This document shows positions 2,582 through 9,033 of a stretch of 64,000 nt of DNA, in pieces (the stretch's first letter is position 1; each line of letters starts with the position of its first letter). Source of the DNA: Escherichia virus TH54; sequence record MT446420.1, one strand, 5' to 3'. The notes beneath the pieces are model-generated. The model was not told the DNA's origin. It searched no databases and saw only the letters and a list, made by a program, of their open reading frames with translations. The translations under genes were made by a program, and so were the position numbers.

Positions 2582-3142
2582 TTAAGAGTTCATAGTTGGG
2601 ATAACAGAGTTCAGATAAGAGACTAAAACTTTTAGCTCGTCTTTAGTAAATACCACTTCACTTTCGCCGTCATGTCTTTGGACAATGGACAACAAGTCAC
2701 GGCCGTTATGTTGATGCACAGTCAGTTCAGTATTATAATCTAATTCCTCTTCATCGCCTTCAAACGTTTCGCTAGAGCGAATCAGTGCGTCTTGTCCTGG
2801 GACTTTCCATTCAACTTCTGGTTTACATTCTTCCTGGAACAGTTTGAAAATACAATCAAAGAATTTATCAGAATCGCTGATGCTCAGACATTCAATACCA
2901 TTTTCTAAATTAAACCCGTTTTCGTTTTTATAGATATAGGCATACATATCATCATTGATATCAACAGGAGCACTAGCACGACCATTAAGATAATCGTGTC
3001 TATCCAAAACCATTAAATCATAAAGCGGTTTAATATCAGCGATAGTCAGTACGATTTTATCGTCTTCTTGACAAAGCTCAATTGCGTTATTAACTACTTC
3101 AGCGGTCAGTTCGCCAAACAATTCAGTTGTTTCAATAATCAT
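2582..3142 (-). CDS. hypothetical acidic protein
   Basis: 186-aa ORF in a tightly packed minus-strand gene run. Confidence 0.45.
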   Translation of the reverse strand: MIIETTELFGELTAEVVNNAIELCQEDDKIVLTIADIKPLYDLMVLDRHDYLNGRASAPVDINDDMYAYIYKNENGFNLENGIECLSISDSDKFFDCIFKLFQEECKPEVEWKVPGQDALIRSSETFEGDEEELDYNTELTVHQHNGRDLLSIVQRHDGESEVVFTKDELKVLVSYLNSVIPTMNS

Positions 3143-3152
3143 TTTCTGTTCC

Positions 3153-3368
3153 TCAACGGTTATGTTTTAAAATACTATAAAGTGCTTCTACTTGGCTTGC
3201 ATCCAGGTAAATAACATCATCATCTTGCTCAATGGAAATCCCACCAGTATTACCTTTAACAAAATTACATTCGCACACTTCAACCGGGCGGTATACGTCA
3301 CCAACTGGATGCTCAGGCTCCAGAACAATCACACCATTTTCAGAATTACCACTTGGGTCATATAACAT
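3153..3368 (-). CDS. hypothetical small protein
   Basis: ORF with internal ATG at 3368 preceded by GAGGAA; track start is TTG. Confidence 0.35.
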   Translation of the reverse strand: MLYDPSGNSENGVIVLEPEHPVGDVYRPVEVCECNFVKGNTGGISIEQDDDVIYLDASQVEALYSILKHNR

Positions 3369-5319: not shown

Positions 5320-5327
5320 TATTTATA
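5320..5327 (-). promoter_or_regulatory. late promoter TATAAATA on minus strand upstream of rI
   Basis: exact TATAAATA about 50 nt upstream of the rI ATG. Confidence 0.4.
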
Positions 5328-5598
5328 ATCTTTTAAACTTGAAACAATATATTGCAAATAAATCAGAAAAATGGCTATCAACCCATATTCTTTGCACTGG
5401 ACTAGTAACAGTCAGCATATAATGTGCTTTTTGTAAATTTATTCCATTTTTATTCGGACATTCTTTATTAACAGAATGGTACGTGCTTGCTACTATTTCA
5501 ATTTCCCTTTCATATCTCTCGCTATCTGTTTGTGTGGGGATAAATGCAATTCCAGCAATAACAAAAATAGAGATATACGTCCAAATCTTATATATCAT
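5323..5598 (-). CDS. small membrane protein
   Basis: 91 aa with one N-terminal TM helix (ISIFVIAGIAFIPT). Confidence 0.4.
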   Translation of the reverse strand: MIYKIWTYISIFVIAGIAFIPTQTDSERYEREIEIVASTYHSVNKECPNKNGINLQKAHYMLTVTSPVQRIWVDSHFSDLFAIYCFKFKRL

Positions 5599-5605
5599 AA
5601 GGACC

Positions 5606-6178
5606 TCAGCTTGTCAATTCGAGCCAATGTTTCCTGCATAAAGATACGTACGATTCATTCCCACCGACCAATACTTGCTCGCCGTCCTTTACAGCAGCAC
5701 CGTCGATTACTCGAGCGGTCATGGTTGCTTTCCGGCCGCAATGGCAGACGCCCTTTAATTCAACCAGTTTATCCGAAATAGCCAGAAGTCTGGCTGAACC
5801 GGGAAATAACTGACCCCGAAAATCTGTTCTTAGCCCGTAACACATAACGGGGATATTGTAATTATCAACCACTCGTGCTAACTGGTCAATTTGCTCTGGC
5901 AACAAAAATTGAGCTTCATCGACCAGGACACAATGGATGTCCTTTTGAGACTCGGCCCATTTATAGAATTCAAACAGGTTCATGTCGGCCGTTACCAGGT
6001 TTGCTTCCTGGCTAATACCAATACGTGATTTAATTTCAGATTCCGAGTCCCGATTATCAATAACAGGCTTTAGCAAAAGCACACTCATTCCACGCTCTTT
6101 ATAGGAATAAGCGGCAGTCAGCAATGAAGCTGTTTTGCCTGCATTCATTGCTGCGTAATGATAAATTAAACTCGCCAT
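5606..6178 (-). CDS. tk: thymidine kinase
   Basis: 190 aa; P-loop AAMNAGKTASLL, VDEAQF and CHCGRKA zinc motif; near-colinear with T4 Tk. Confidence 0.9.
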   Translation of the reverse strand: MASLIYHYAAMNAGKTASLLTAAYSYKERGMSVLLLKPVIDNRDSESEIKSRIGISQEANLVTADMNLFEFYKWAESQKDIHCVLVDEAQFLLPEQIDQLARVVDNYNIPVMCYGLRTDFRGQLFPGSARLLAISDKLVELKGVCHCGRKATMTARVIDGAAVKDGEQVLVGGNESYVSLCRKHWLELTS

Positions 6179-6187
6179 ATCACCTTC

Positions 6188-6373
6188 TTAAAGCGTATTC
6201 ACATAAGCTATTAATTCGTTTTCTTTCTCATCAAATCGATTAGCAAATTCTTCCAGATGGTCGGCATCTATCGGGCCATATTCATCATAAAAGGCGTTTG
6301 CTTCCGTATGCTCGTCCAAAAGCTCATGGATAAGCTCAAACAATCTACTTTTCTGACTAATACTTAAACTCAT
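6188..6373 (-). CDS. hypothetical small acidic protein
   Basis: 61-aa ORF, overlaps next gene start. Confidence 0.4.
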   Translation of the reverse strand: MSLSISQKSRLFELIHELLDEHTEANAFYDEYGPIDADHLEEFANRFDEKENELIAYVNTL

Positions 6374-6576
6374 TTCAGTTCACCATATCGTACAAATTCA
6401 GGGTGTTCACAATCACCAGAATGGAGACCTTCACCTTCATGGTTAGGACATCCTTTATTAGAACAGTACCACCAGTAATCAAATCCACATTCCATTTCAT
6501 CGTTGCATAAAACTGCGATTACTGGCCATTCGCATTTTTCACATTTGGCCGTTTTAAGAATTCGGGCTTGGCTCAT
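6370..6576 (-). CDS. Cys-rich small protein, probable zinc ribbon
   Basis: 68 aa with CxxC...C...C...CxxC...C pattern. Confidence 0.45.
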   Translation of the reverse strand: MSQARILKTAKCEKCEWPVIAVLCNDEMECGFDYWWYCSNKGCPNHEGEGLHSGDCEHPEFVRYGELK

Positions 6577-7027
6577 AATCCACCACTATTAAATCAATAT
6601 CAGGAGTAAACATGTCGATTAATTTAGAAACCTTATCCCAATCGCCGCCAGCAATACCACAACCAATACGAGGAATATAAATTACCGGTTTAAACAAAAG
6701 GGTTTCTGCCTGTAGATTTAATTCTATCATACAATTTACTAAAGCGCCATAATCAAGATTAGGGCCCGGTTCATATTGGGTGTACAAATTATAACACATA
6801 CCAAACCCAGTAGGCTTATGTTTAAAAACAATAGACATATCACCGAGTTTTTCTCTGGAACCATATTCAGTAGTGGTTTTATCTATTTCTAAAACTTTTG
6901 GATAAGCCTTCGCCAACTGTCCAGCTACGCCAGAACCCATTGTGTGAAAGCAGTTGCAACCATGTGCAATAATATTGCCTTGAAGAAAGAGGGCGACAAT
7001 ATCGCCCTTAATATACTGGGTAATCAT
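6554..7027 (-). CDS. macro-domain protein (ADP-ribose-binding/processing fold)
   Basis: 157 aa; GDIV..GNIIAHGCNCF..MGSGVAGQ and later IGCGIAGGDW resemble macro-domain glycine-rich motifs. Confidence 0.5.
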   Translation of the reverse strand: MITQYIKGDIVALFLQGNIIAHGCNCFHTMGSGVAGQLAKAYPKVLEIDKTTTEYGSREKLGDMSIVFKHKPTGFGMCYNLYTQYEPGPNLDYGALVNCMIELNLQAETLLFKPVIYIPRIGCGIAGGDWDKVSKLIDMFTPDIDLIVVDYEPSPNS

Positions 7028-7383
7028 TTAGAGTTCAATCCTCTATTATATGAATCCACTAACCTGTCAACCATACTGGTGCAGGCCGCCTTATATTTTG
7101 CACTTGAAAGAATGCAATCCATTTCAAATAATTTCTTTTCATATTTGTTGGATAATACATTCTTTTTCAAAAGTGTATGTTCAACATCATTTTGACCATC
7201 TTTATATGCCGCGGTGAGCTTGGCGCTGAACTGGATTACACAATCCACATTGCTTGCTGCGCAATAATCTTTAGCCGTCCTCGTTGCATATTCTATGATG
7301 CTGTTGTTGTCATCGCTCTGTACTGAAGCTATTCCTCCCATGCTGAATACTAACCCTATGGCTAAAGTGATAACTCTTACCAT
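7024..7383 (-). CDS. secreted/periplasmic hypothetical protein
   Basis: 119 aa with N-terminal signal peptide MVRVITLAIGLVFSMGGIASVQS. Confidence 0.45.
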   Translation of the reverse strand: MVRVITLAIGLVFSMGGIASVQSDDNNSIIEYATRTAKDYCAASNVDCVIQFSAKLTAAYKDGQNDVEHTLLKKNVLSNKYEKKLFEMDCILSSAKYKAACTSMVDRLVDSYNRGLNSK

Positions 7384-7385
7384 TT

Positions 7386-7928
7386 TTAATCCACCGTTTT
7401 TAATAGGCCTCGTGATTTTAAGTAGTTAGCTTTTTCTAGGACTTGTGAAGCATACTTATTACCAGCTTTCACATTCCACCCTGCGTTATATGATGATAGT
7501 GTTTTCCTTATATCCCCCTTATGAATATCCAACCAGTATGAAAGCTCAATGTAAGCCCAGCGTGCACTGTTCTCTCTCTTGCTTATCATCTTGATTATTT
7601 CTTTATCTGTCATTGTCCACCCAACCTGTTTCACGCGTTCGCGCACGGTTGGAAGATAATTTTGGAATATACCATATGCATGGTGCTTATCTTTATTTAA
7701 TCCAGTATTAATCCCAGCAGAACTCTCCTGCCAGGTTAAACCAGCCATGATATATCCCAAACCATTATGTTGGTGCGGATTTTCTTTGTACTTACCATTT
7801 TTCTGGAACTGTTCTCCAAACGCATAAGCATATTGAAGGTTTTCCATTTGTTCATTACTGAAAGTAGGCTCTACGCTATGGGCAGACATACTAACTGTCA
7901 ATAGTAAGGTGGCGATTACTTTTTTCAT
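7386..7928 (-). CDS. secreted lysozyme-like / lytic transglycosylase-like protein
   Basis: signal peptide MKKVIATLLLTVSMSAHS; E-S...GIFQ...YNAG pattern reminiscent of SLT domain. Confidence 0.45.
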   Translation of the reverse strand: MKKVIATLLLTVSMSAHSVEPTFSNEQMENLQYAYAFGEQFQKNGKYKENPHQHNGLGYIMAGLTWQESSAGINTGLNKDKHHAYGIFQNYLPTVRERVKQVGWTMTDKEIIKMISKRENSARWAYIELSYWLDIHKGDIRKTLSSYNAGWNVKAGNKYASQVLEKANYLKSRGLLKTVD

Positions 7929-7938
7929 GAATTCCCCA

Positions 7939-8397
7939 TTAGATATAAATCACTTTTGTGCTAATTTTTCCTTCCAGACGATTAGAGTTAACAAACGCCA
8001 TACGGCAACACATGGTTGGAGACTTCCCAGGAATAGCGGGGTTAACTGTCATTCCTAACCATAGGTTCTTGTCCGTGATTTCCAGACGAAGTGGACGGTA
8101 GTTCACATTCGGGTCAATTTGTGCTTCAACTTCCGGGAGTGGTTTCATCTCCAAGAATTCAACGATTTCTTTTACATGTGGTGTGATTTTTCCAAACAAG
8201 TCAAAAACATATTGTTCATCAATTTCACGCTGGATTGCACGGTCCAATAGGTGTGGACTGTACTTAATGAAGAATGCTTCAAGGCCTGCTTCTTTACAAG
8301 CCTTGTTGATAGCATTATTAATTTTGAGGAACTCCGTTTCAAAAATGCGACGAAGTTTATTGCGGCGAATGTAAACACTTGAATCGATAGTAGTCAT
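7939..8397 (-). CDS. regB: RegB endoribonuclease
   Basis: 153 aa from MTTIDSSVYIRRNKLRR; near-colinear with T4 RegB; AGGAG SD. Confidence 0.85.
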   Translation of the reverse strand: MTTIDSSVYIRRNKLRRIFETEFLKINNAINKACKEAGLEAFFIKYSPHLLDRAIQREIDEQYVFDLFGKITPHVKEIVEFLEMKPLPEVEAQIDPNVNYRPLRLEITDKNLWLGMTVNPAIPGKSPTMCCRMAFVNSNRLEGKISTKVIYI

Positions 8398-8399
8398 GA

Positions 8400-8453
8400 T
8401 TATCTCCTTTTGTTTGATGGGATAATCATAACTCATTTCAATCTGCTTGTACA

Positions 8454-8455
<2 letters not shown>
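8400..8455 (-). promoter_or_regulatory. early promoter (-35 TGTACA, -10 TATGAT) with GATGGGATA inverted repeat
   Basis: minus-strand TGTACA-N17-TATGAT upstream of regB SD. Confidence 0.5.

Positions 8456-9033
<578 letters not shown>

Follow-up and report, generated by a model that had tools for sequence, protein, structure and literature searches.

Predicted exported products of the vs.1 and vs genes of a T-even phage: a putative transglycosylase and its proposed envelope-protein neighbor

Two adjacent open reading frames (ORFs) in the genome of Escherichia virus TH54 raise the question of what a T-even phage may send into the envelope of its host, and whether a protein long labelled a cytoplasmic tRNA synthetase modifier is part of it. 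We analyzed a 64,000-nucleotide stretch of this genome (record MT446420.1), here called the window. A preliminary description had taken the two ORFs for secreted proteins of the early region. At the level of sequence this reading stands, but it did not recognize them as the named T4 genes vs.1 and vs. Both ORFs are real and lie on the minus strand. One, at 7386-7928, runs from an ATG at 7928-7926 to a TAA at 7388-7386 and encodes 180 amino acids; the other, at 7024-7383, runs from an ATG at 7383-7381 to a TGA at 7026-7024 and encodes 119 amino acids, with the stop codon included in both intervals. Their T4 orthologues are vs.1 and vs, respectively. The larger matches phrog_600 (E 1e-67) and the smaller phrog_1256 (E 1.4e-32), and the region is 96.7-98.7% identical to Gaprivervirus genomes in which the genes are annotated vs.1 and vs. 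Read leftward along the minus strand of this Gaprivervirus-like T-even genome, the block order is regB, vs.1, vs, tk.4, tk. The region is syntenic with T4, with vs placed between vs.1 and tk.4. The features of the locus are:

7386-7928, minus strand: vs.1 orthologue, coding sequence of 180 amino acids, precursor of a predicted periplasmic family-1 (SLT/GH23) lytic transglycosylase
7024-7383, minus strand: vs orthologue, coding sequence of 119 amino acids (phrog_1256 / PF26829), predicted exported four-helix protein
7933-7937, minus strand: putative Shine-Dalgarno-like GGGGA, read from the sequence, 5 nt ahead of the vs.1 ATG and right behind the regB stop
7381-7395, minus strand: vs.1/vs junction, with the vs.1 TAA (7386-7388) 2 nt before the vs ATG (7381-7383)
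7024-7027, minus strand: ATGA overlap of the vs stop with the start of tk.4, a macro domain gene

Much of this is ordinary, the re-identification of two catalogued T4-family genes. The similarity of vs.1 to SLT was already published (PMC1524935), and as the transglycosylase prediction has been in print for about twenty years, repeating it adds little. Public databases also contain a protein identical to the Vs.1 of the window (P0001, 100% identity). T4 Vs.1 itself (phrog_600, often called SLT domain-containing protein) is 65% identical and equal in length, likewise sits between regB and vs, and shares the signal peptide and motifs, with no substantive difference. The one oddity is Vs, which carries the sequence marks of an exported protein. 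The answer we favor, and consider probable, is that vs.1 and vs are a coupled pair encoding predicted exported proteins, a periplasmic transglycosylase and an envelope protein.

Translational coupling is predicted from the junction, where the vs.1 stop lies 2 nt from the vs ATG and a Shine-Dalgarno-like GGTGGA for vs sits within the 3′ end of vs.1. The T4 genes share an 8-nt overlap. A promoter scan gave 12 promoter-like sites against 14.8 expected from shuffles, no enrichment, and we claim no promoter; a terminator scan likewise gave 3 terminator-like sites against 3.6 expected. We rejected the reading of the two frames as chance ORFs, since tblastn found the Vs.1 ORF in 2082 phage records and the Vs ORF in 797, and their signal-like N-termini are conserved. 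Plus-strand ORFs were rejected as an explanation as well; those present have at most 83 codons and run antisense to two conserved genes.

The preliminary description had pointed to an E-S..GIFQ..YNAG pattern in the larger ORF. All three elements are there and correspond to motifs of family-1 lytic transglycosylases:

7719-7733, minus strand: motif I, W66-Q-E68-S-S70, in which Glu68 (codon 7725-7727) is the predicted catalyst; E68 and S70 invariant in the alignment of 44 Vs.1 homologues
7662-7673, minus strand: motif II, G86-I-F-Q89, the equivalent of G-L-M-Q; G86 and Q89 invariant in the same alignment
7479-7493, minus strand: motif III, S146-Y-N-A-G150, the equivalent of A-Y-N-x-G; Y147, N148 and G150 invariant in the same alignment

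No Asp is found among the invariant or nearly invariant columns of these 44 homologues, suggesting that Vs.1 has a single catalytic carboxylate and lacks the second conserved Asp of goose-type lysozymes. We used an hhalign alignment of the Vs.1 profile with Escherichia coli MltE for residue correspondence only; its score is weak (E 0.2), and it places E68 on the catalytic E64 and motif II on the MltE GLMQ. Against Pfam SLT (PF01464) the Vs.1 ORF scores 15 bits, below the gathering threshold of 21.3, and 43 of the 44 homologues match at E ≤0.1 (best E 1.3e-7). The lysozyme-like or transglycosylase fold that the preliminary description had suggested, and had exposed to refutation by structure prediction, withstood modelling with AF2 and comparison with Foldseek. 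The AF2 model (pLDDT 84.4, with residues 1-20 low) has a lysozyme-like, mainly α-helical catalytic fold in which E68 lies inside a predicted helix, 58-73, just ahead of a disordered segment at 71-79. Among its top nine Foldseek matches, most are to SLT-type families, with probabilities of 0.75-0.98 and weak E-values. HMMER searches of the PDB with the single sequence and the profile of Vs.1 found no relative by sequence, and a single-sequence search with Vs found nothing meaningful; the sole matches from these searches were a biofilm protein (E 0.42) and a metacaspase (E 0.37). In NCBIfam, Vs.1 has no match and Vs gives noise only. We found no biochemically characterized member of the Vs.1 family in the searchable literature.

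Signal peptides had been proposed for both ORFs, and both have the expected N-terminal architecture. Our call combines heuristics (a basic n-region, then 10-15 hydrophobic residues as h-region, with small side chains at -3 and -1) with conservation. Vs.1 begins with a basic MKK, continues with the hydrophobic core VIATLLLTVSM and reaches a small-residue cleavage site, SAHS before VEP. Vs has the same n/h/c layout, with MVR, VITLAIGLVFSMGG and IAS before VQS:

7875-7928, minus strand: predicted Sec (SPI) signal peptide of Vs.1, residues 1-18 (MKKVIATLLLTVSMSAHS, then VEP), from heuristic n/h/c analysis, with 44/44 homologues alike
7324-7383, minus strand: predicted signal peptide of Vs, residues 1-20 (MVRVITLAIGLVFSMGGIAS, then VQS), with an alternative cleavage after S23

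A crude filter built on the same rules passes three of the 89 non-overlapping ORFs of at least 70 amino acids in the window, and two of the three are the adjacent vs.1 and vs. Every aligned Vs.1 homologue (44/44) retains the signal-like N-terminus despite sequence drift, and the architecture extends to the distant homologues of Kuttervirus and Kolesnikvirus (Ackermannviridae and Felix-O1-like phages). Among 70 representatives of the Vs family, the N-terminus is SPI-like in about 59, and in seven a lipobox, L-x-G-C, takes the position of the signal peptide; the remaining three or four are N-terminally truncated calls. A lipobox makes sense only in an exported protein and so supports export of Vs. 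The SignalP table of Nolan 2006 covers ORF-numbered genes only, and entries for vs and vs.1 are absent from it. Both proteins would thus be made as precursors with cleavable Sec-type signal peptides, which makes the periplasm the expected site of action of mature Vs.1 (about 18.7 kDa) and Vs (about 11 kDa), starting in the pre-replicative phase. The early timing assigned to the pair in the preliminary description holds through the T4 orthologues only; the PMC9697503 supplement puts both in the early class for RNA and the middle class for protein.

We predict that mature Vs.1 is a family-1 (SLT/GH23) lytic transglycosylase, small and with one domain. Its only acid/base catalyst would be Glu68, where the ES helix ends, and the enzyme would cut the MurNAc-β-1,4-GlcNAc bond without water, leaving 1,6-anhydroMurNAc ends. 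It is very divergent from Slt70/Slt, MltE (EmtA), MltC, MltF and EtgA (PF01464, GH23), at 13-18% identity. Slt70 has superhelical domains that Vs.1 lacks, and MltE is a lipoprotein whereas Vs.1 is predicted to be soluble and exported by Sec. In size and layout Vs.1 resembles EtgA and MltE, Sec-exported specialized transglycosylases of secretion systems. Unlike these family-1 enzymes, it comes from a virulent phage, which expresses it early. The phage transglycosylases of the T7 gp16 N-terminal domain, phiKZ gp144 and phi29 gp13 are carried in the virion and attack from the outside when the cell is infected. The host-type signal peptide of Vs.1 and its place in a pre-replicative gene block instead suggest delivery from inside by Sec.

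A parallel is Kayvirus Tgl, which like the predicted Vs.1 is phage-encoded and Sec-secreted, has transglycosylase motifs and an early-type promoter, and is separate from the late endolysin; it differs in its Gram-positive (staphylococcal) host and its sequence family, which is IsaA/SceD-like (PMC7150955). The existence of such accessory enzymes lends some credit to the idea that Vs.1 is a second, holin-independent lysis enzyme, Sec-exported or SAR-type endolysin-like, that sets lysis time or complements lysozyme, with Vs as its antagonist. Vs.1 is predicted to be exported and keeps its catalytic residues, and the lysis-inhibition gene rI is a few genes away in related genomes. We nevertheless regard this role as improbable. 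T4-like phages already have a holin and the e lysozyme. T4 e mutants do not lyse, so Vs.1 alone is insufficient for lysis. It is also made minutes after infection without causing lysis, and T4 vs.1, like vs, is non-essential in transposon data (bioRxiv 10.1101/2025.11.20.689424). In our preferred reading, a periplasmic transglycosylase paired with Vs, Vs.1 would not be the main endolysin.

Vs is where sequence and annotation part. The secretion proposed for the smaller ORF has the signal architecture on its side but is at odds with the family annotation, valyl-tRNA synthetase modifier, a cytoplasmic function. The Vs of the window is 45.5% identical to T4 Vs and matches it in length and position, and the C-terminal SMVDRLVDSYNRGL segment and four Cys are conserved as well; all Vs homologues match PF26829. 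In the AF2 model of Vs, helices span 24-40, 46-69, 74-90 and 95-116, and the N-terminal 23 residues (pLDDT <50) lie outside the fold. Two further features stand out:

7081-7263, minus strand: four conserved Vs Cys codons, C41 (7261-7263), C48 (7240-7242), C90 (7114-7116) and C101 (7081-7083)
7027-7077, minus strand: invariant C-terminal segment of Vs, S103-MVDRLVDSYNRGLNSK119, from an alignment of 29 sequences

The four Cys are present in every full-length member and invariant across both Vs subfamilies, which are 20-30% identical. In the model, the pairs flank the H1-H2 and H3-H4 loops and probably form two disulfides; the four Cys could also be a Cys4 metal site in a cytoplasmic protein. Mature Vs would then be a four-helix protein with two probable disulfides and, in one clade, a lipid anchor. 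Of the 19 invariant columns in the 29-sequence alignment, 13 fall in residues 103-116, and the second subfamily retains the relaxed form L-x3-Y-x2-G-L. This segment is likely a partner-binding surface.

Whether that partner is a cytoplasmic synthetase depends on how the N-terminus is read. PMC8076793, citing Muller and Marchin 1975 and 1977, describes T4 Vs as a factor that binds host valyl-tRNA synthetase, which implies a cytoplasmic site of action. On this account, Vs.1 is an exported transglycosylase and Vs an unrelated cytoplasmic neighbor that alters the stability and tRNA affinity of the synthetase; the hydrophobic N-terminus of Vs is no functional export signal, or the unexported fraction alone matters. 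The annotation of the family in GenBank and PHROGs agrees with this account, as does the biochemical literature cited in PMC8076793. We think it unlikely. The signal peptide or lipobox, the four invariant Cys and an N-terminus outside the fold all predict export, as does every other feature of the Vs sequence examined, against the residence that its name implies. The signal architecture persists in about 66 of 70 representatives while the sequence drifts, including the seven that have swapped to a lipobox. When His-tagged full-length T4 Vs was produced in the cytoplasm it was insoluble (PMC8076793). The calculated mass of T4 Vs is 11.0 kDa mature and 13.1 kDa as precursor. Muller and Marchin are said to have given in 1977 a size of about 10 kDa for the factor, nearer the mature form, so processed T4 Vs fits better.

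If exported, Vs would have its site of action in the envelope. There it would most plausibly partner or regulate either Vs.1 or some other periplasmic target. The evidence that it might bind or inhibit Vs.1 is gene adjacency. In a sample of eight genera (the window, T4, SP18, AB-Navy4, myPSH1140, S16, PKO111 and PSTRCR_121), vs lies directly downstream of vs.1 in all eight, the genes overlapping or 0-8 nt apart. This adjacency could come from the strong synteny of T4-like genomes alone. In four of the eight genomes the gene after vs encodes a third protein with a signal peptide, phrog_4957; tblastn for phrog_4957 in the window was negative. Aeromonas, RB43-like, Ackermannviridae and Felix-O1-like phages have vs.1 without vs. 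Vs.1 therefore does not need Vs, and that so many phages carry vs.1 by itself also suits the view of Vs as an unrelated neighbor.

Small periplasmic proteins beside or acting on a lysozyme-fold enzyme offer an analogy for the predicted Vs, among them Spackle, Ivy, PliG/MliC and Tsi3. T4 Spackle, like Vs, is an early protein of the T4 type that is helical and has a signal peptide. Comparison of Vs with known lysozyme-fold inhibitors (Spackle, Ivy, Pli and Tsi3) detected no structural similarity. The general profile that Vs shares with Spackle, a small helical signal-peptide protein made early, and the predicted periplasmic location of both Vs and Vs.1 would also suit a role of the pair in superinfection exclusion or in resistance to lysis from without, by altering peptidoglycan or by blocking the incoming tail lysozyme as Spackle does. 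We give this role very little weight.

The same T4 transposon data (bioRxiv 10.1101/2025.11.20.689424) bear on the fitness of both genes. Insertions in vs.1 and vs are both about 10-fold under-represented, with LB control counts per TA site of 26.6 and 22.6 against 179-652 for regB, vs.3 and tk.4. For vs.1 and its homologues, this suggests a measurable fitness contribution of Vs.1-like transglycosylases; the shared under-representation could also be a polar effect of vs.1 insertions on vs. In minimal medium (M9-glucose), vs is the most depleted gene of T4. The table that shows significant depletion of vs (log2FC -2.19) also has a fall for vs.1, of -0.87 with p 0.0055 and an adjusted p of 0.155. 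Translation is limited by amino-acid supply in M9-glucose, and the phenotype of vs mutants fits a role in translation at least as well as one in the envelope, which counts in favor of the synthetase account. For the exported pair that we prefer, the purpose may be to remodel peptidoglycan in a controlled way, to the benefit of phage fitness and above all on cells that grow slowly.

A bolder version of this proposal, which we consider rather unlikely, is that modifying valyl-tRNA synthetase in the cytoplasm is not the role of Vs, or not its only one, and that in vivo Vs is an exported, disulfide-stapled partner of Vs.1 in a conserved periplasmic wall-remodelling module. The phrog_4957 protein would join the two in several genera, the envelope would account for the defect that T4 vs mutants show in minimal medium, and the reported modification of the synthetase would reflect precursor left unexported or compartments mixed in lysates. 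The export signals of the Vs family contradict a functional label propagated since the 1970s. Were Vs periplasmic, a textbook case of a phage-modified host aminoacyl-tRNA synthetase would need re-examination, and a new phage envelope module would be defined.

The two families differ in reach. Vs.1-like predicted exported transglycosylases occur in more than 2000 genomes of large virulent phages of Gram-negative hosts, in Straboviridae, Ackermannviridae and Ounavirinae. A profile search with Vs against 1.84 billion representatives gave just eight matches, which suggests that the Vs family does not extend beyond T4-like phages and phage-sized contigs. A repeat protein of 3694 amino acids matched the Vs profile, probably spuriously.

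The two ORFs lie between regB and tk.4, and the window order regB, vs.1, vs, tk.4 and then tk is that of T4. The features, with both ORFs taken from the mechanical ORF list, are:

7386-7928, minus strand: vs.1 orthologue, product Vs.1, 180 aa
7024-7383, minus strand: vs orthologue, product Vs, 119 aa
7939-8454, minus strand: regB (Pfam REGB_T4, E 3e-72)
6554-7027, minus strand: tk.4, a macro-domain gene (Pfam Macro, E 2.8e-8; phrog_335)
6370-6576: phage zinc-binding protein
5606-6178: thymidine kinase (tk)

The regB stop is 11 nt upstream of the vs.1 ATG, and 2 nt separate the vs.1 stop from the vs ATG, with a ribosome-binding-like GGTGGA within the 3' end of vs.1. The vs stop overlaps the tk.4 ATG as ATGA. 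Over positions 6500-8500 the identity is 98.7% with Escherichia phage vB_EcoM_RZ and 96.7% with Shigella phage SP18 (genus Gaprivervirus), and both records annotate the counterparts of the two ORFs as vs.1 and vs. In PHROGs, Vs.1 matches phrog_600, of unknown function (E 1.1e-67), and Vs matches phrog_1256, 'valyl tRNA synthetase modifier' (E 1.4e-32). From the near-identical annotated relatives, the PHROGs matches and the T4 gene order, both ORFs are assigned by sequence to the vs.1/vs gene pair of a T-even-type phage. Both the Vs.1 protein and the Vs coding sequence already have identical entries in public databases.

The mechanical regB ORF (7939-8454, minus strand) has a GTG start and codes for 171 aa. 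The Pfam RegB match starts at residue 23 and the SP18 regB is 498 nt long (165 codons plus stop); translation probably begins at an internal ATG instead. The T4 orthologue of tk.4 was named AdfM, an anti-DarT2 factor, in a 2025 preprint (bioRxiv 10.1101/2025.11.20.689424). A terminator-like hairpin, AGGGCGATATTGTCGCCCT, with an 8-bp stem including five G-C pairs, is found at 6990-7008 on the minus strand, 16 nt past the vs stop and within the beginning of tk.4, and has a weak T-rich tail behind it. Between the two genes it could serve as a partial stop or as an RNA-stability element; terminator-like sites showed no overall enrichment in the vs.1/vs region.

Both proteins begin with one or two basic residues, an uncharged hydrophobic stretch and a small-residue site (Vs.1, MKK-VIATLLLTVSM-SAHS/VEP; Vs, MVR-VITLAIGLVFSMGG-IAS/VQS). 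Of the 89 non-overlapping window ORFs with 70 aa or more, 3 passed a crude filter built on these rules, namely the adjacent vs.1 and vs plus one beside tk. Such calls are heuristic, and conservation among homologues was taken as the stronger test. The paired signal peptides of the preliminary description are predicted here as well and are conserved among homologues of both proteins; for Vs.1 the pattern is present in every homologue, including the distant ones of Kuttervirus Mutine and Kolesnikvirus phiEa21-4. The third ORF to pass the filter (91 aa, 5323-5598, minus strand) is directly downstream of tk in the neighbourhood of T4 rI / rI.1, begins MIYKIWTYISIFVIAGIAFIPTQ and matches SP18_gp108, annotated as hypothetical. 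Its product is a possible accessory protein of lysis inhibition, either membrane-anchored or exported.

Searches with Vs.1 retrieved 90 cluster representatives, and by tblastn vs.1 is present in 2082 phage records, among them T4-like phages of Escherichia, Klebsiella, Aeromonas, Acinetobacter and Vibrio as well as Ackermannviridae and Felix-O1-like phages. The E-S..GIFQ..YNAG pattern described previously is located in the motifs W66-Q-E68-S-S70, G86-I-F-Q89 and S146-Y-N-A-G150. In an alignment of 44 homologues with identity down to 42%, E68, S70, G86, Q89, Y147, N148 and G150 are among the invariant residues and no aspartate is invariant. The Pfam SLT match of the window Vs.1 is weak (E 0.018, 15 bits against a threshold of 21.3 bits); SLT matches at E <= 0.1 are found in 43 of the 44 homologues (best E 1.3e-7). 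From this alignment AlphaFold gave a confident model (mean pLDDT 84.4), poorly defined only at the N-terminal 20 residues and loop 71-79. The best Foldseek matches in the PDB are mostly lytic transglycosylases and goose-type lysozyme, with non-significant E-values, and the Vs.1 profile aligns weakly with E. coli MltE (E 0.2), placing E68 on the catalytic E64 and GIFQ on GLMQ. The model and motifs agree with the lysozyme-like or transglycosylase fold proposed earlier, and Vs.1 is very probably an exported SLT-fold enzyme.

With the fold and motifs of the family-1 lytic transglycosylases, the window protein falls short only on Pfam score, and its enzymatic role is predicted. Vs.1 would be a soluble, Sec-exported, single-domain member of that family (mature mass about 18.7 kDa, calculated) with Glu68 as sole catalytic residue. 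From family membership and the absence of a second conserved carboxylate we infer non-hydrolytic cleavage yielding 1,6-anhydroMurNAc. Both genes are known, and for vs.1 the transglycosylase idea is already published: SLT matches of vs.1 are listed for all 6 genomes out of 6 (E 0.012-0.74), which the authors take to corroborate earlier T4 PSI-BLAST results (Nolan et al. 2006, PMC1524935), and several GenBank records label the product a lytic transglycosylase domain protein. On the favoured reading Vs.1 would cut glycan strands to a limited extent and would not lyse the cell; T4-type phages have a separate holin-lysozyme system. Alternatively, Vs.1 may take part in lysis as an accessory, Sec-dependent enzyme, with Kayvirus Tgl as a precedent (PMC7150955).

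The window Vs is an orthologue of T4 Vs (45.5% identity), whose N-terminus is MTKILVLCIGLISFSASASA/DTSY. A first search found 28 relatives, all tagged PF26829. The Vs profile had only 8 matches among 1.84 billion representatives and a two-subfamily alignment had 66. By tblastn the second subfamily, from phages with hosts including Klebsiella, Acinetobacter, Enterobacter, Salmonella, Yersinia and Providencia, is found in 387 records, which are only in part separate from the 797 found with the window Vs. On these searches the family appears confined to T4-like phages. In P0119, a highly repetitive protein of 3694 aa and unknown origin, 17 repeats match Vs profile positions 14-54 (E 5e-10); it looks unrelated to phage Vs, the match probably being spurious or compositional.

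We also surveyed the N-termini of 70 Vs representatives. About 59 are of the signal-peptidase-I type, 7 carry a classical lipobox in that position (e.g. ALSGC, LLSGC, LLLGC) and the remaining 3-4 are truncated gene calls. As a swap from a signal-peptidase-I to a lipoprotein signal makes sense only for an exported protein, this pattern is our strongest evidence that the family is extracytoplasmic, and export of Vs is likely. Agreeing with this, the calculated mass of T4 Vs is 11.0 kDa mature and 13.1 kDa as precursor. Muller and Marchin reportedly put the T4 factor at about 10 kDa in 1977. Also in agreement, His-tagged full-length T4 Vs expressed in the E. coli cytoplasm formed inclusion bodies (PMC8076793). 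The lipobox clade is seen at L007 1501-1827 (Enterobacter phage myPSH1140) and in proteins P0122 and P0129-P0134, for example MKKLFVLLVVVALSGC; Asp does not follow the Cys, the residue there being K, R, N or G. The vs.1 gene upstream in the myPSH1140 record (953-1501) is without annotation.

The family owes its name to genetic and biochemical work on T4, in which host valyl-tRNA synthetase (ValRS) is bound by a phage factor that changes the enzyme's properties (Muller and Marchin 1975, 1977, cited in PMC8076793). The window Vs belongs to the T4 Vs family by sequence and position, but the cytoplasmic location implied by the name is contradicted by the predicted signal: host ValRS is cytoplasmic, so the named function conflicts with predicted export. 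A signal peptide on Vs is not discussed anywhere in the searchable literature. The uniform predicted export signals of a 'valyl-tRNA synthetase modifier' family are a side result deserving a bench test.

The Vs model is a four-helix bundle (24-40, 46-69, 74-90, 95-116) with residues 1-23 unstructured (pLDDT < 50). The subfamilies, only 20-30% identical, have ten invariant columns in common, of which four are Cys (C41, C48, C90, C101), and all full-length members retain four Cys in the mature part. In the model each Cys pair brackets one helix-helix loop, and because the two loops share one end of the bundle the cysteines could form a Cys4 metal site rather than disulfides.

In every vs-bearing genome opened, vs is directly downstream of vs.1, overlapping or a few bases apart. 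These represent eight genera (the window, T4, SP18, AB-Navy4, myPSH1140, S16, PKO111 and PSTRCR_121), and in Acinetobacter phages different genes surround the pair (PMC4177764). Because T4-like genomes are strongly syntenic, the linkage is a weaker sign of a functional tie, and a rival reading is mere adjacency, with Vs keeping its canonical cytoplasmic ValRS role. Vs.1 is independent of Vs, as vs.1 occurs without vs in Aeromonas phages, RB43, Kuttervirus and Kolesnikvirus; Vs, where present, accompanies Vs.1.

In T4 both genes are early by RNA and middle by protein (PMC9697503 supplement). In HIDEN-SEQ on E. coli K-12 grown in LB both proved non-essential, 30/32 and 46/52 TA sites of the pair carrying insertions (bioRxiv 10.1101/2025.11.20.689424). 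In M9-glucose vs was the most depleted gene, and a vs deletion had a confirmed plaque defect there; the text of that paper discusses vs only, not vs.1. We took Data S8 of its supplement as the LB versus M9-glucose comparison because the table fits the authors' description of vs depletion. It gives a log2FC of -2.19 for vs (adjusted p 0) and -0.87 for vs.1 (p 0.0055, adjusted p 0.155). LB control reads per site are 26.6 and 22.6 for the vs.1/vs pair, about ten-fold below the flanking regB (178.6), vs.3 (652) and tk.4 (289.6), and the joint depression recurs in the other HIDEN-SEQ tables; across several tables, LB controls included, the pair is 5- to 100-fold below these genes. This fits a shared role, but polar effects of vs.1 insertions on vs, coupled and downstream, would explain it equally well. 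On the favoured reading both proteins would be Sec-exported soon after infection, Vs would be active in the same compartment as Vs.1, possibly restraining or directing it, and the pair would raise phage fitness, more so on slow-growing cells. Joint action of Vs and Vs.1 is a tentative part of this reading, less likely than not. A Spackle-like exclusion function for the pair is another alternative.

In four linkage genomes a gene of phrog_4957 follows vs and codes for a third small protein with a predicted signal peptide; the window has no counterpart. The four are:

1818-2219: phrog_4957 protein, Salmonella phage S16 (L008)
1821-2213: phrog_4957 protein, Klebsiella phage PKO111 (L009)
1800-2246: phrog_4957 protein, Providencia phage PSTRCR_121 (L010)
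2806-3231: phrog_4957 protein, Acinetobacter phage AB-Navy4 (L003)

These proteins, of unknown function, have 130-148 aa and two Cys. The mature start is W-E-K-L-P-G-Y-P in S16 and PKO111 and differs in the other two. With vs.1 and vs, the gene makes a run of three genes for predicted exported proteins in these four genomes.
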